5,959 bases of DNA from a virus (IMGVR_UViG_2713896782_000022); one strand, 5' to 3'; counted from the first letter of the stretch, positions 1-5,714 are shown. Made by a program: numbers and translations. The notes: generated by a model not told the origin, from the letters alone.

Positions 1-1280
1 ACGACGGGACAGCGCCTCCAGACTGTAGTTCTGCTGCTGAAGATACAGTGCATCACCGCCGGCCAGGGGCGGCAGGTTCTCCCGTTTACGGGCCTCATTG
101 GGCGTGAGAAGCGTATTTTTCACCGCATCCCCCAGCGTTTTCATGCGCCGCTCACTGTCCATTCTCAGCAGCGTGGTGACATCAAATTCTGTACTCTCGT
201 TTTCCCCCGTTTCCAGCGCCTCATCCAGTAACAGTTCAATGGACTCAATCAGCGTCTGCAGNNNNNNNNNNNNNNNNNNNNNNNNNNNNNNNNNNNNNNN
301 NNNNNNNNNNNCGTCTGCAGGCACTGGGAATAATACTGCTGCTCCAGCGCCTCCACGTTGTCACTGGAAGGCGGTTGTCCCACGCCAATCTTGTAGGCCG
401 GGACACGGAACACCGAACAGACAATTTCAGCGGTCATCTTCAGTTGTTCCACCGTCTGCGCATCCACCGGTGAAAACGTCGTGGGGTTGTATTTTGCCCC
501 GTTGCTCAGAATGGCCGTTTTCCCCGCATTTTCGCCTGTATACCCGCTGTCCCAGTTGCTCTTCAGTTTTTTCGCATTTTCTTCCGTAATACTGCCGGGG
601 ATCTCAATCACCCCGGACGGCCTGCCGCCATTTCTGAAAAAAGACGTCGAATTTTCCTGAATATGATGCCCCTGCGTGGCCGCCAGCCCGGCGGCATACA
701 CCGGCGGCAATCCTATAAGCGGATGAAAAAAACAGTTAAACCGGTCGTGGATCACTTCCCGGGCAGGCACCGTCACCGCCTCCGTGATCCCGCAGTTCCG
801 GTCCGGCGTGATGCGGTAGAACACCTCGCCGTCATCCGCCACCAGAGGTTCAACCCGGCTCCAGTCCAGAATACGCAGTTCTTTGATCTGCCCCCGGGCA
901 TTACGGATTTTCAGCACCACCGTATTGCCATGACGCAGTTTGGCGTTCAGCCACAGTTCAAAAAACTGGATGCGGTTCTGCTGGGCGTTGGGACGACGAC
1001 AGAGGCGGGCAATATCCCCCCGGCGCGTTTCCCTGCGTATCCCATGCGCATCCGTCTGCATAAGACGCAGCCGCATTTTGGCGATATCCTGGGATATCAG
1101 CGAAATACATGCAAACACCGCATGAAAGGAGAGGACGGCTTCAGGATCGGCTTTCACGCCCTGCTGCCAGGCGCCGGAAAAGGGCTCAGCCACCGCCTGA
1201 AACAGGCTGGTCCAGCCCGCCTCTCTTACGTCACGTCCTGATTTCTGGTTTTTTCGGGTTCGCCGTAAAAGGTTCCACAT
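1..1280 (-). CDS. Phage portal protein, HK97 family (partial: C-terminus lies beyond the left edge; interrupted by the N gap at 262-311)
   Basis: Minus-strand ORF starting at ATG 1280-1278 (MWNLLRR...), with GGAG about 8 nt upstream and an in-frame stop 5 codons upstream. The translation has portal-like conserved blocks (AVFACISLISQDIA; RPNAQQNRIQFFELWLNAKLRHGNTVV; FFRNGGRPSGVIEIPGSITEENAKKLKSNWDSGYTGENAGKTAILSNGAKYNPTT; AEIVCSVFRVPAYKIGV). The track ORF ends at 249 only because the 50-N run shifts the frame. My own translation of the reverse complement of 1-261, in the frame aligned to position 1, gives an open portal-like C-terminal segment (LQTLIESIELLLDEALETGENE...TPNEARKRENLPPLAGGDALYLQQQNYSLEALSRR) with no stop codon. 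Family assignment is from memory of the portal fold family. Confidence 0.88.
262..311. other. Assembly or scaffold gap (50 N)
   Basis: A run of exactly 50 N. It is flanked on both sides by the identical 9-mer cgtctgcag (253-261 and 312-320). Confidence 0.95.
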
Positions 1281-1447
1281 TCGCCATGCTCCGCATCACG
1301 TTTCTTTTTCTGACCTGCCGGACGTCGCACCGTGATGTACTCCGCCTTTCCCAGGCGAACCAGCACCTCCGCACACGGCTGTGCCACATCACGGATATCC
1401 CCGGCCCGGGCATCATGCGTGCCCTGCAGATATCGGATCTTTGCCAT
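1226..1447 (-). CDS. Hypothetical small protein (73 aa), possible head-completion or adaptor-type gene; function unknown
   Basis: ORF MAKIRYLQGTHDARAGDIRDV... fills the 211-bp space between the capsid-gene stop (1492) and the portal start (1280). ATG at 1447-1445. A strong AAGGAGG (reverse complement of 1478-1484) lies 30 nt upstream, separated from the ATG by a 20-nt GC palindrome. The 3' end overlaps the portal start by about 55 nt out of frame, which lowers confidence. I recognise no family. Confidence 0.35.
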   Translation of the reverse strand: MAKIRYLQGTHDARAGDIRDVAQPCAEVLVRLGKAEYITVRRPAGQKKKRDAEHGECGTFYGEPEKTRNQDVT

Positions 1448-1456
1448 AACCTGTTA

Positions 1457-1476
1457 CGGGAGGCGCACGCCTCCCG
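1457..1476 (-). promoter_or_regulatory. GC-rich palindrome / RNA stem-loop between capsid-gene stop and the next start codon
   Basis: CGGGAGGCG-CA-CGCCTCCCG: perfect 9-bp inverted arms around a 2-nt centre. It is not followed by a U-run on either strand, so it is not a classic intrinsic terminator. It sits between the SD AAGGAGG and the ATG of the 73-aa ORF. Confidence 0.45.
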
Positions 1477-3467: not shown

Positions 3468-3492
3468 CATGATGGTTACAGTGTGAACAGGG

Positions 3493-5154
3493 TTATATGA
3501 AAAAAACCGCATATTCTTTCTTTTTCGGTTCCGGGTTAAGGGACATCAGGGAGACCGCATTGAACAGCGCCATCAGCGGGTCAATTTTTCCCCGTCCACT
3601 GGCCTGTTTGGTGATAAGAATGGCGTTACCTTTAGGCTCCACCCGGGCATTGCCGACACACCAGGCCATCAGGGGCTGGTCACCATGCACCAGCACCCCT
3701 TCAGCCAGTTTGCGCTCGGTGGTTTTAATGGCCCCGCCCAGTTTCCAGCCCTGGCTTATCCCCACCACAATTCCGTCGGGGATCCCGGCTTCCGCCAGTG
3801 AATCCAGAATCTGCCCCACCCCTGACGGGTCAATACCGATATGGTCCAGTAACTCAGCCTCATGAATGCGACGCACATATTCCGCCACTTCCGCCGTGTC
3901 ATCCCCGACACGCCGGACAATGGTCATATCTCCACAGGCAACAAGATCCTGAAACCGGGACGCCTCGCTCTTCCGTCGGACCACCGCGGTTTCATGCGCC
4001 CAGGCATGGCCCCAGCCCAGCCATTCGCGGGTTTCCCTGTCACGGCCAATCACGTACATTCCCAGCAGATCATCCAGGCCCCCGCCGTCAATCCCCACCG
4101 TCACCACATCAGCGCGCTGCAGGATATCGTCCAGGCTGACGCGCCTGCCCTGCTGCTCCCAGAAATCCGCACCCGCCCAGCGGTCAGAACGCAGGGCAAG
4201 ACCAATTTCCACATTGGCATGTTTTGACATGAAGCCACGAAATGCTTCCTCACCAGCCTCCCGGGCTTTACGGTACTCCCGGTACAGAAAAGCCTCATCC
4301 ACCGAATAACCGAGATTCGGGTTAACCATGGCGAGGTTTTCCATCAGCAGGTGAGCCCCGCTTTCCACCATTTCAGGAGGATGCTCAAAAATCACCGGCA
4401 GAAAGTGCGGATCATGAATTTTGCCGTCACGGACATCCCGGGCGTACTGCAGTTTCTGTCTGAACACCCCGGCTGGCGGCTCATTCGACTGGGTGGTCGT
4501 ATACACCACAAACCCTTCCGGGCGGGAGGCAAGGCCGCCTATGGCTTCACGTAACATGTCCTCCGCTTTGTACTGCTTGCCAAATAACCACAGTTCATCA
4601 ATCAGCGTCCCCACGGACTTGATACCGGATACCGTATTCGGATCGGCAGCCACCACCTTCAGGGTGGTGTCCGTCACCCTGTGGGTGATGGTCCGGATAT
4701 GTGTCTGCACCTGACAGAGGTCATCCAGATCATCGTCCCGTCGTACCATATCCCTGGCAGGGTTGAAGGCGTTAGCCGCCACCTCCACGGTCGGGGCCAG
4801 AATGGTGTAGCCCGCCGCCTGCCGCCAGTTCAGTAACAGCGCCGTCATCATGATCCCGGCAGCCAGCGTGGACTTGCTGTTTTTCTTGGGGATAAGGATA
4901 AAAACTTCCTTGATATGGCGTACACCGGTCTGCGCATCGTAGGAGCCAAACAGGGCCGCCACCAGGTCAAACACCCACTGTGCGCAGGACTCCCCGAACG
5001 TCGGGCTGCCCGGTGCATCCACAATCCGCAGTTGTTTAAAAATCGCCAGGGCATGTGCGGCCTGCTCCGGATAAATCGGAGCCGGAATAATCGACAGCCC
5101 CTTTTTCAGGCGCTCTGCCCAGTCCGGGCAGGCCGTGCTCCACACAGGTATCAT
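3493..5154 (-). CDS. terL: Phage terminase large subunit (TerL), 553 aa
   Basis: Minus-strand ORF with ATG at 5154-5152 and GAGGG 6 nt upstream. The start overlaps the terS stop in an ATGA arrangement (translational coupling). Walker A-like motif LIPKKNSKST in the N-terminal ATPase region. Acidic motifs in the C-terminal nuclease-like region (VTVGIDGGGLDD, VIGRDRETRE, ITKQASGRGKIDPLMALFNAV). Size and position after terS fit TerL. Stop TAA at 3495-3493. Confidence 0.92.
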   Translation of the reverse strand: MIPVWSTACPDWAERLKKGLSIIPAPIYPEQAAHALAIFKQLRIVDAPGSPTFGESCAQWVFDLVAALFGSYDAQTGVRHIKEVFILIPKKNSKSTLAAGIMMTALLLNWRQAAGYTILAPTVEVAANAFNPARDMVRRDDDLDDLCQVQTHIRTITHRVTDTTLKVVAADPNTVSGIKSVGTLIDELWLFGKQYKAEDMLREAIGGLASRPEGFVVYTTTQSNEPPAGVFRQKLQYARDVRDGKIHDPHFLPVIFEHPPEMVESGAHLLMENLAMVNPNLGYSVDEAFLYREYRKAREAGEEAFRGFMSKHANVEIGLALRSDRWAGADFWEQQGRRVSLDDILQRADVVTVGIDGGGLDDLLGMYVIGRDRETREWLGWGHAWAHETAVVRRKSEASRFQDLVACGDMTIVRRVGDDTAEVAEYVRRIHEAELLDHIGIDPSGVGQILDSLAEAGIPDGIVVGISQGWKLGGAIKTTERKLAEGVLVHGDQPLMAWCVGNARVEPKGNAILITKQASGRGKIDPLMALFNAVSLMSLNPEPKKKEYAVFFI

Positions 5155-5714
5155 CCGTTGCCCTCATTATCATTATTCACCACCAGGCGGGGTGGTGGTG
5201 GCACCGCAAAACGGTTAGCCGCTTTTTTCGCCGCGTCACCTTTTGCCGATTTTTTACCGGCATCCCCTTTTTTGTGGTGCGTGAACTGCGCCAGCTTATA
5301 AGCCGCATCCAGCGCCAGCCTGGGGTCGGTATTAATGTTCTCCACCAGAAGACGCCCCATCGCTTTCACCGGATCGGGAAGACCGTCCTCCATATACTCA
5401 ATACCAGGAGATATCACCACGGGCGGTGGCATCTCCGGATTTGTTTCGTCCGGCTGTGGTATTGCAGCCGCCTCACGGCGACGGGGTTTATCCTCCGGCT
5501 CTGATTTTTTCTGCCGATAAACAGGAACCTCATCCACCTCCACCGTCTCGCACTGTTTACGGGCTATAAACGCAAGCACCTCCGGATCTTTTGCCAGCTG
5601 CGAGCCTTTAACCCTGGCTGTCTTCGCCGAATAACCGGCGGCAAGGGCTGACGCTGTTTTGTTTTTCCCGGACATGAGCGCCAGCGCAAATTTTCGTTTT
5701 TGCGTTGTCAGCAC
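5151..5714 (-). CDS. terS: Phage terminase small subunit (TerS), Terminase_2-like N-terminal HTH, 187 aa
   Basis: GTG start at 5714-5712 with GGAGG upstream; an in-frame stop lies 21 codons upstream with no ATG between. The N-terminus LTTQKRKFALALMSGKNKTASALAAGYSAKTARVKGSQLAKDPEVLAFI matches the remembered pattern of small-terminase HTH domains (LT.KQ..F......GN.T.AA..AGYS.K.A). It sits immediately upstream of and coupled to terL. The central and C-terminal parts are Pro/Glu-rich and Lys-rich low complexity. Confidence 0.8.
   Translation of the reverse strand: MLTTQKRKFALALMSGKNKTASALAAGYSAKTARVKGSQLAKDPEVLAFIARKQCETVEVDEVPVYRQKKSEPEDKPRRREAAAIPQPDETNPEMPPPVVISPGIEYMEDGLPDPVKAMGRLLVENINTDPRLALDAAYKLAQFTHHKKGDAGKKSAKGDAAKKAANRFAVPPPPRLVVNNDNEGNG

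Follow-up and report, generated by a model that had tools for sequence, protein, structure and literature searches.

A head-assembly and packaging module with a fused protease-capsid gene and capsid-before-portal order, shared with tailed lambdoid prophages of Escherichia coli

Results

Organization of the packaging and head genes

The window analyzed here is a 5,959-nucleotide stretch of viral DNA (IMGVR_UViG_2713896782_000022) that carries five genes, all on the minus strand, in the order terS, terL, protease/major capsid protein (MCP) fusion, a 73-aa open reading frame (ORF), and portal, exactly as an earlier sequence-only reading had proposed. The terminase small subunit gene terS (5151..5714, minus strand; 187 aa) matches Pfam Terminase_2 (E=4.5e-8) and phrog_641 (E=2.4e-68), and starts at a GTG codon with GGAGG ahead of it. 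It overlaps by 4 nt the large subunit gene terL (3493..5154, minus strand; 553 aa), whose product matches both TerL_ATPase (E=2.2e-11) and TerL_nuclease (E=3.8e-10) as well as phrog_9 (E=2e-145). In the gap between terL and the capsid gene, a consensus scan marked a terminator-like GC hairpin with a T-run (3451..3468, minus strand), which is weak evidence alone since 4 terminator-like sites were found in the window vs. 5.9 expected.

Just beyond the gene module itself (1-5714), the intergenic region between HNH and terS holds a cluster of five GTTAAC / ATGTTAAC motifs (5789..5912, no strand assigned), arranged as direct and inverted repeats. The window contains six GTTAAC sites in total, five of them inside 5791-5910, compared with a whole-window expectation of 0.58, and at least six sites were seen in 0 of 200 shuffles. 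Judging from its position only, we regard this array as a candidate cosB-like TerS recognition site; the motif is not conserved in the other genera compared, where TerS is only ~40% identical.

The small ORF in the capsid-portal gap (1226..1447, minus strand) combines a conserved core of 38 aa with a basic tail, and matches phrog_829, a family of unknown function (E=3.7e-39), with no match in Pfam or NCBIfam. Orthologues of 51-67 aa occupy the same position in 16 loci, including one in Snodgrassella, and an AF2 model of the protein was unusable (pLDDT 55). The portal gene (1..1280, minus strand) encodes the N-terminal ~406 residues of an HK97-family portal (Pfam Phage_portal E=7.5e-67; TIGR01537 E=1.9e-104, for the full-length protein) that is cut by the window end and reaches its full length of 859 aa in phage 2851; the HK97 portal 8cez is among its PDB relatives (E=4e-20). 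Within this gene lie 50 N (262-311) and a second copy of CGTCTGCAG (312-320; first copy at 253-261), together spanning 262..320 (no strand assigned). This is a scaffold-gap artefact of assembly: in the alignment, phage 2851 runs continuously through the site without these 59 bases. All ORFs within the window are intact.

A single gene encodes protease, delta domain and capsid

The central gene of the module (1492..3429, minus strand) starts at a GTG codon with GGAGG and encodes a 645-aa, 69.0-kDa fusion of prohead protease, delta (scaffold) domain and HK97-fold major capsid protein (Peptidase_S78 plus Phage_capsid; phrog_617 at full length, E=3e-261). The S78 serine-protease core occupies residues 48-152 (2974..3288, minus strand; PF04586 E=2.4e-8; TIGR01543 at 48-154), and BLASTP comparison of the protease domain with HK97 gp4 gave 29% identity over 148 aa, with Ser110 (in GLSVGF) aligned to HK97 Ser114 and His55 falling one residue off HK97 His65. 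Ser114 and His65 are the catalytic residues of the HK97 prohead protease, and on this alignment His55 and Ser110 are the putative catalytic residues here. The HK97-fold capsid domain follows at residues 386-635 (1525..2274, minus strand; PF05065 E=5.2e-14), and residues 204-584 match positions 3-355 of the TIGR01554 model, in keeping with an HK97-family MCP that has an N-terminal delta domain. The fusion is not a sequencing artefact: over 1,200 complete E. coli genomes have the same 645-aa ORF, and among the 150 best cluster representatives at 50% identity, 144 show an equivalent fusion.

A putative internal start at Met193

Inside the fusion gene, sequence conservation singles out a proposed internal ribosome-binding site, AAGGA (2868-2864), and an in-frame ATG at Met193 (2853-2851; whole feature 2851..2868, minus strand). 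The product predicted from this start is a 453-aa, 48.2-kDa protein without the protease, and homologues in which the MCP is unfused start level with query residues 193-196. In a comparison whose Enterobacterales homologues are non-independent samples, the Gly codon upstream of Met193 is GGA, a rare codon, in 16/16 sequences, while a single codon is kept in only 2 of 38 conserved-Gly columns and synonymous sites elsewhere are well randomised (39-55% identical codons at identical residues). Further afield, GGAGGG is present in distant homologues, and a Met stands 1-4 residues ahead of the delta-domain motif in 62 of 87 fused representatives. These patterns lead us to consider it somewhat probable that the internal Shine-Dalgarno (SD) sequence and Met193 also yield a protease-free capsid protein, which would set the ratio of protease to capsid. 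We give about even chances to the broader proposition that the "fused" gene is a nested pair, whose two starts would fix by their ratio how much protease enters the prohead, and that hundreds of 50%-identity clusters from proteobacterial prophages share this arrangement. The literature returned no description of such a nested-start device for this protease-capsid family.

The competing explanation is a polyprotein with a single start, in which Met193 and AAGGA would survive from an ancestral gene boundary or reflect a constraint on the protein linker, and we hold it to be plausible but not favored. It agrees with public annotations, which give the gene as one CDS only, with the moderate strength of the internal SD in each single sequence (ranking around the top 10% among positions of the same gene), and with our search for expression data on the internal start, which found none. 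It accounts less readily for the retention of the rare GGA codon amid otherwise randomised synonymous sites, or for the two sequences in which AGGA outlasts a change of codon phase that turns the Gly into Glu. A linker constraint also sits poorly with a linker that varies around the site in both sequence and length, and with the recurrence of the Met and the SD-footprint residues across many 50%-identity clusters.

The module matches a widespread type of lambdoid prophage

Over its whole length the window is 100% identical to phage 2851 (Stx2c; NC_049943), Stx2a_WGPS6 (NC_049945) and the Sakai prophage Sp6, and 99.9% identical to phi330 (PV189401); when BP-4795 and Sakai Sp9, Sp10 and Sp12 are included with these Pankowvirus and Sp6 sequences, nucleotide identity ranges from 97.8 to 100%. 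The genes, their order, the fusion and the small ORF are as in the window in all of these relatives, the sole within-window difference being the artificial 50-N gap. In the public record of BP-4795, the fused gene is labeled "major head protein/prohead protease". Among 5,426 complete E. coli genomes, 1,286 (~23%) carry the module, with a median of 2 and a maximum of 7 copies per genome, and the 100% matches are mostly O157:H7 chromosomes. We conclude that the window is very probably a DNA-packaging and head-assembly block from the late operon of a long-tailed lambdoid E. coli prophage of the Pankowvirus / Sakai Sp6-Sp9-Sp10-Sp12 type, a type that takes in the Stx-converting phages 2851, BP-4795, Stx2a_WGPS6 and phi330. 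The differing head-region organization of Sp6, Sp9, Sp10 and Sp12 was already in print in 2009 (PMC2669165); the module and its unusual gene order are thus already known, and the finding as first stated adds nothing new.

For genomic context we read, in place of the window's own flanks, five reference loci (phage 2851, Sakai Sp6, vB_EcoS-569R3, phi330 and ABU 83972). All are lambdoid genomes of about 48-58 kb that carry cI/cro/O/P/Q-type genes, in which holin, endolysin, Rz and Q genes lie upstream of the module and genes for Ad1, head closure, a gp10-like protein, tail terminator, tube, tape measure, tip and fibre lie downstream of the portal; HNH and Ad1 are beyond the window and were seen in reference genomes only. 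The order HNH-terS-terL-protease/MCP-small ORF-portal-Ad1 was found in loci of Enterobacterales, Hydrocarboniphaga, Marinobacter, Snodgrassella and Hyphomicrobiales, and recurs in tailed prophages of alpha-, beta- and gammaproteobacteria, with HNH and terS undetected in some of the most distant loci and with tail tube or tape-measure genes downstream in 4/4 distant loci tested. Capsid-before-portal order is a stable trait of the lineage; we found no evidence for a functional consequence of it.

State of the host element

It is possible, at somewhat less than even chance, that this particular copy comes from a decayed prophage like Sakai Sp6, whose head and packaging genes would depend on co-resident lambdoid prophages for tail and other functions. 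The Sakai match lies in Sp6 and most other perfect matches are O157:H7 chromosomes; in Sp6, moreover, the distal tail genes are degraded, with IS2 elements and effector genes in place of the J-type tip and fibre genes. The 50-N gap in the window is the sign of a draft assembly, in which contigs break at repeated modules of this kind. Sp6 was rated defective for portal, head, minor tail and host specificity; even so, low-frequency transfer of Sp6 to K-12 occurs, and the authors put this down to complementation (PMC2669165). Because the identical Sakai copy sits in this defective element, the copy in the window may be unable to make virions unaided. However, the complete phages 2851 and Stx2a_WGPS6 match these 5.9 kb just as perfectly, such that sequence cannot discriminate between the two states, and the intact ORFs also speak against decay. 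The question in any case concerns the state of the host element, and leaves the nature of the module unchanged.

Comparison with capsid-forming satellites

The least tenable explanation, which we consider extremely improbable, is a capsid-forming satellite akin to cf-PICIs, one that makes its own heads and packages its own DNA while borrowing tails from a helper phage. The sequence-only reading had raised this from the gene order, and proteobacterial cf-PICIs do place capsid and protease before portal and carry HNH, terS and terL too (bioRxiv 10.1101/2022.09.08.507074; Sakai Sp7 map), while the window itself is without a tail gene. The suggestion nevertheless fails, on both of the grounds for refutation that the sequence-only reading had itself named, because connector, tail and lysis genes are contiguous with the module in all five reference contexts, with tail genes also in distant relatives, and because identical or near-identical modules sit in the characterised plaque-forming phages 2851, BP-4795, Stx2a_WGPS6 and phi330. 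Lambdoid regulation and replication genes were likewise present in every context read, and an int-alpA-primase set in none. In particular, phi330 is a siphovirus purified on CsCl (55 nm head, 145 nm tail, receptor OmpC) whose module is 99.9% identical to the window's and which forms plaques on K-12 without a supplied helper (PMC12502783).

Relatedness points in the same direction, as the window proteins are no closer to the cf-PICI Sakai Sp7 than to HK97 (against Sp7, TerL 24%, portal 26%, protease 30% over 101 aa, and a marginal MCP match with E=8.5e-4 over 54 aa), and the terS families differ, Terminase_2 in the window vs. Terminase_4 in Sp7. The cf-PICI authors themselves reported no RefSeq phage with wGRR > 0.09 with EcCIEDL933 (bioRxiv 10.1101/2022.09.08.507074). 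As for the features by which cf-PICIs are recognized, a 10-15 kb integrase/AlpA/primase island (PMC10085698; bioRxiv 10.1101/2022.09.08.507074) is ruled out in the reference contexts by their 48-58 kb lambdoid genomes, and the rule that tail and holin genes be lacking (SatelliteFinder counts both as "forbidden") is broken by the tail tube, tape-measure, tip and holin genes contiguous in all of them. Thus, the earlier interpretation holds for the distinct order, the fusion and the separate lineage, but not for the satellite.

Discussion

The S78 prohead protease has a counterpart in the HK97 module (gp1-gp7, gp74 HNH), and so do the MCP, which joins the HK97 fold to a delta domain at its N-terminus, the portal, which is of the HK97 family, the connector set of Ad1, head closure, gp10 and tail terminator, and the HNH gene adjoining the terminase. 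The module departs from HK97 in its order, which is terL, fused protease/MCP, small ORF, portal rather than terL, portal, protease, MCP as separate genes, as well as in the small ORF ahead of the portal, a C-terminal portal extension of ~450 aa, and protein identities of only 23-29%. In pairwise comparison the MCP is too dissimilar to HK97 gp5 for residues to be matched dependably at the covalent Lys-Asn crosslink (K169-N356). Relative to lambda (Nu1, A, W, B, C/Nu3, D, E), the head module occupies the same position in the lambdoid late operon and the tail genes of relatives are lambda-like (H, M, L, K, I, J types), whereas lambda's C, D and E belong to another family than the S78 protease and MCP seen here, and the order differs too. 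These comparisons bear out the claims of a departure from the textbook lambda/HK97 order and of a lineage separate from the head genes of lambda itself, HK97-like at a considerable distance. With cf-PICIs (EcCIEDL933; Sakai Sp7) the module has in common an HK97-like capsid, protease, portal, connectors, HNH, terS and terL, and the capsid before the portal; in contrast, Sp7 is 15.5 kb, with integrase and primase, no tail or lysis genes, separate MCP and protease genes in that order, a Terminase_4 terS, and proteins at most 24-30% identical to those of the window.

In a working model, TerS would bind near the GTTAAC array upstream of terS and, together with TerL and the adjacent HNH endonuclease, would cut and package DNA as in HK97-type cos phages. 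From one reading frame, the 645-aa gene would provide protease, shell and, as the delta domain, scaffold. Since the delta domain would face inward with the S78 protease fused to its N-terminus, the protease would end up inside the prohead. The shell would assemble on the portal, after which the protease would remove both itself and the delta domain. The 48-kDa capsid protein from Met193 would, on what we judge to be slightly favorable grounds, set the protease-to-capsid ratio within this scheme. Lambda C/Nu3 and herpesvirus UL26/UL26.5 are nested protease/scaffold pairs in which a shorter in-frame product from an internal site shares the C-terminal assembly domain. The proposed likeness is confined to a long product with the protease and a shorter in-frame product from an internal start; what the two products have in common here would be the capsid protein, delta domain included, instead of a standalone scaffold.

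Collectively, these findings indicate that neither capsid-before-portal order nor protease-capsid fusion is a marker of capsid-forming satellites, since whole lineages of tailed prophages have both, and that a window such as this one cannot be classified as satellite or phage without its flanks. The module sits in some of the most-sequenced prophages, the long-tailed Stx phages of EHEC, and the putative internal start offers a small, testable point about what may determine protease stoichiometry in a head-assembly system that is very common.

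Gene content of the head module

In the window, every long ORF with family support lies on the minus strand, and ORF and family evidence together bear out the head-gene order described in the sequence-only reading: terS (5714..5151, 187 aa; Pfam Terminase_2, E=4.5e-8), terL (5154..3493, 553 aa; TerL_ATPase and TerL_nuclease), a 645-aa prohead protease/major capsid protein (MCP) fusion (3429..1492; Peptidase_S78 at residues 48-152, Phage_capsid at 386-635), a 73-aa small ORF (1447..1226; phrog_829) and the portal gene (from 1280 leftwards; Phage_portal, E=7.5e-67). The portal is cut by the window end and has about 406 aa inside the window. 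PHROGs and NCBIfam matched the Pfam assignments of the module's genes, with TIGR01554 (HK97 major capsid) spanning residues 204-584 of the fusion protein and the full-length portal matching TIGR01537 (HK97 portal) at E=2e-104.

The portal ORF is also broken by an artefact at 262-320, where 50 N (262-311) precede a repeat of CGTCTGCAG, whose original copy lies at 253-261. The reference sequence has neither the N-run nor the repeat, and the 59 artificial bases mark where two contigs with overlapping ends were scaffolded together within the portal gene. G+C is 0.49-0.51 in mid-portal (window 1-750) vs. 0.56-0.62 across the remaining module (750-5750), the latter well over the E. coli average, which suggests that the module came from a higher-GC source or that a mosaic joint lies within the portal gene.

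An Rfam scan of the window returned no matches, and a promoter and terminator scan gave counts at or under shuffle expectation. Between terL and the capsid gene, which are 63 nt apart, we observed a GC-rich hairpin with a T-run (3451-3468, minus strand), just 5' of the capsid gene's GGAGG and GTG start. It may serve the late operon as an internal terminator or attenuator, or else act as an RNA stability element.

Identity and distribution of the module

Over its entire length the window matches three elements at 100% identity: the Stx2c-converting Enterobacteria phage 2851 (genus Pankowvirus), Stx2a_WGPS6 and, in E. coli O157:H7 Sakai, prophage Sp6. Identity is 99.9% with phage vB_EcoS_phi330, and 97.8-98.7% with BP-4795, YYZ-2008, phage 1717 and many Stx1a/Stx2c phages. 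Phage phi330 has been CsCl-purified and is plaque-forming, with a 55-nm head, a 145-nm flexible tail and OmpC as its receptor (PMC12502783). Among complete E. coli genomes, 1,286/5,426 carry the module, at a median of two copies and a maximum of seven, and carriers include non-O157 strains such as ABU 83972.

The unusual gene order and the fusion are both already known and ordinary: the head regions of Sakai prophages Sp6, Sp9, Sp10 and Sp12 have been described as differing in organisation from lambda (PMC2669165), the public BP-4795 and Stx2a_WGPS6 records label the fusion gene "major head protein/prohead protease", and NCBIfam includes a model titled "prohead protease/major capsid protein fusion protein".

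Genomic context and comparison with satellites

The head-gene order had led to the proposal that the module might belong to a capsid-forming satellite. This was reasonable, since proteobacterial capsid-forming PICIs (cf-PICIs) also place capsid before portal, in the order capsid, protease, portal, connectors, hnh, terS, terL (PMC10085698; bioRxiv 10.1101/2022.09.08.507074). Such elements are 10-15 kb long, carry an integrase, an AlpA-type regulator, a primase-replicase, HNH, terS, terL, portal, capsid, protease and two connectors, and are without tail or holin genes (PMC10085698; bioRxiv 10.1101/2022.09.08.507074).

We read the module's context in five elements (phage 2851, Sakai Sp6, vB_EcoS-569R3, phi330 and the ABU 83972 copy), all lambdoid genomes of 48-58 kb. 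In all five, the portal is followed 3' by an Ad1 head-tail adaptor, head closure, HK97-gp10-like, tail terminator and tube genes, and then by chaperones, tape measure and tail-tip assembly genes; complete phages continue with J tip, Lom and fibre genes, which Sp6 has lost. On the other side, terS is preceded 5' by an HNH endonuclease, then Rz, endolysin and holin, then Q, with stx beyond Q in the Stx phages. Tail and lysis genes are thus contiguous with the module, and close homologues sharing its order are characterised phages (2851 and the plaque-forming phi330), two findings that each run against the satellite proposal on the terms in which it was made.

Sakai also offers a direct comparison, as the 15.5-kb "untypable" element Sp7 lies 4.7 kb from Sp6 (4711-20171 of the Sakai locus L036) and has a complete cf-PICI make-up: integrase, primase, MCP, S78 protease, portal, adaptors, HNH, terS and terL, with no tail or lysis genes. 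The product of its gene ECs_1595, labelled "holin protein", is in fact an HNH endonuclease by Pfam (E=1.2e-8). This make-up fits a 2009 report that Sp7 DNA is packaged despite the absence of tail genes in Sp7. Window proteins share 24% (TerL), 26% (portal) and 30% over 101 residues (protease) identity with those of Sp7, figures equal to those against HK97 (23%, 27% and 29%), while the match between the two MCPs is barely detectable and terS belongs to Terminase_2 in the window vs. Terminase_4 in Sp7. Among solved structures we found no close relative of the capsid (best 9d9w, E=0.002). The contexts of identical copies and the comparison with Sp7 together led us to reject the satellite reading, and by these sequence comparisons the module is no relative of cf-PICIs.

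Sp6 has been scored as defective in several morphogenetic functions, and is still transferable with the help of other prophages (PMC2669165). Since the identical Sakai copy lies in this element, the window copy may sit in a decayed prophage, which would still not place it in a satellite family.

Head-gene order across the lineage

Loci recovered from other species with the fusion protein exhibit the same order of terL, protease/MCP, small ORF and portal, with HNH and terS before the block and Ad1 after it wherever detectable. Hosts at 59-80% identity are Enterobacterales, and those at 32-54% include Hydrocarboniphaga, Marinobacter, Snodgrassella, Chelativorans and other Hyphomicrobiales, and a Caulobacteraceae MAG. 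Tail tube genes lie downstream in all four distant loci tested, and recognisable tape-measure genes in two. An exhaustive HMMER search returned 1,181 clusters (50% identity) at E<=1e-30, and the same fusion is present in 144 of the best 150 cluster representatives. In two Snodgrassella alvi loci (L028/L029, 10001-12048), protease (234 aa) and MCP (439 aa) have a gene each, in an unchanged order (terL, protease, capsid, small ORF, portal), so that gene order is not tied to fusion. The head-gene order is a trait of the lineage and no local rearrangement.

Two cluster representatives (P0003 and P0012) are relatives of about 1,090 aa with an N-terminal AAA ATPase domain (PF00004) ahead of the protease/capsid regions, S78 being detected in P0012 only. 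These are either real triple fusions or gene-calling read-through.

Small ORF and portal extension

Orthologues of the small ORF, 51-67 aa long, occupy the MCP-portal junction in 16 loci and have a common core of 38 residues plus a basic tail, indicating from sequence conservation a real gene. The 73-aa ORF has no Pfam or NCBIfam matches, a word-indexed homologue search with it returned close E. coli "hypothetical proteins" only, and its AlphaFold2 model, built on a shallow alignment, was unusable (pLDDT 55, pTM 0.17). Going by position, our guess is a role in portal incorporation or head completion.

The E. coli small ORF overlaps the portal gene by 55 nt (window 1226-1280), with the portal in the -1 frame relative to it and an A6 run within the overlap. 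In other genera it is 51-58 aa long and terminates close to where the portal gene starts, which suggests that the E. coli tail was added secondarily. We considered a -1 frameshift from small ORF into portal at A6 and rejected it, as the heptamer is no canonical slippery site and the long overlap is absent in other genera.

The phage 2851 portal (L001 18642-21221; left of the window) is 859 aa long, about twice the HK97 portal. Behind the portal domain (54-382) it has a helical stretch and a tandem array of a 54-aa (162-bp) repeat unit (3.3 copies, 95% match), followed by a C-terminal domain, some 130 aa long, that gives a weak CBM_5_12 match below threshold. The Sp6 portal is 833 aa long, that of ABU 83972 is frameshifted, the phi330 record splits it into several CDSs, and a Hydrocarboniphaga relative is without the C-terminal extension.

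Packaging and prohead maturation

HNH, TerS and TerL would most likely carry out cos-type packaging, as in HK97. In about 120 bp 5' of terS (5789-5912) we found five GTTAAC / ATGTTAAC motifs, direct and inverted, compared with an expectation of 0.58 GTTAAC for the entire window. This array may be a TerS-binding or cos-adjacent site; it is found in phage 2851 and is not conserved in other genera, and so gains no comparative support for such a role.

The catalytic residues of the HK97 gp4 protease are Ser114 and His65. Ser110 of the fusion protein (motif GLSVGF) aligned to the former, and His55 lies one residue off the position of the latter. The protease would enter the prohead attached to the N-terminus of the inward-facing delta domain, and would then cleave off itself together with that domain.

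A candidate internal start in the fused gene

Finally, sequence comparison gives about an even chance to a second start within the fused gene, at Met193 (ATG 2853-2851). A literature search returned nothing relevant on internal starts in protease-capsid fusions, and no expression data were found. In the window, AAGGA lies 10 nt 5' of this ATG, and unfused MCP homologues (456-478 aa) start at query residues 193-196. We compared codons across 18 Enterobacterales homologues, in which synonymous sites are largely randomised (identical codons at 39-55% of identical residues). The Gly codon of the upstream motif is GGA in 16/16 sequences, even though these genes use GGA less than any other Gly codon (10% usage) and a single codon is kept in only 2/38 conserved-Gly columns. 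The window and one homologous locus (L017) have Glu for this Gly (AAG GAA), retaining AGGA in another codon phase. GGAGGG occurs at the same place in Hydrocarboniphaga and Marinobacter, within the top 0.5% of anti-SD binding in their genes.

More broadly, Met lies 1-4 residues ahead of the delta-domain motif in 62/87 diverse fused representatives (background Met frequency 2.5%), and SD-footprint dipeptides (EG, KG, GG, KE) lie upstream in 37/64 sequences vs. a 10% background. These counts were anchored on the motif, since MAFFT set window residues 192-194 (Ile-Met-Asn) as an insertion. The fused gene is predicted to yield two products, of 69.0 and 48.2 kDa, which would resemble the nested pairs C/Nu3 of lambda and UL26/UL26.5 of herpesviruses.
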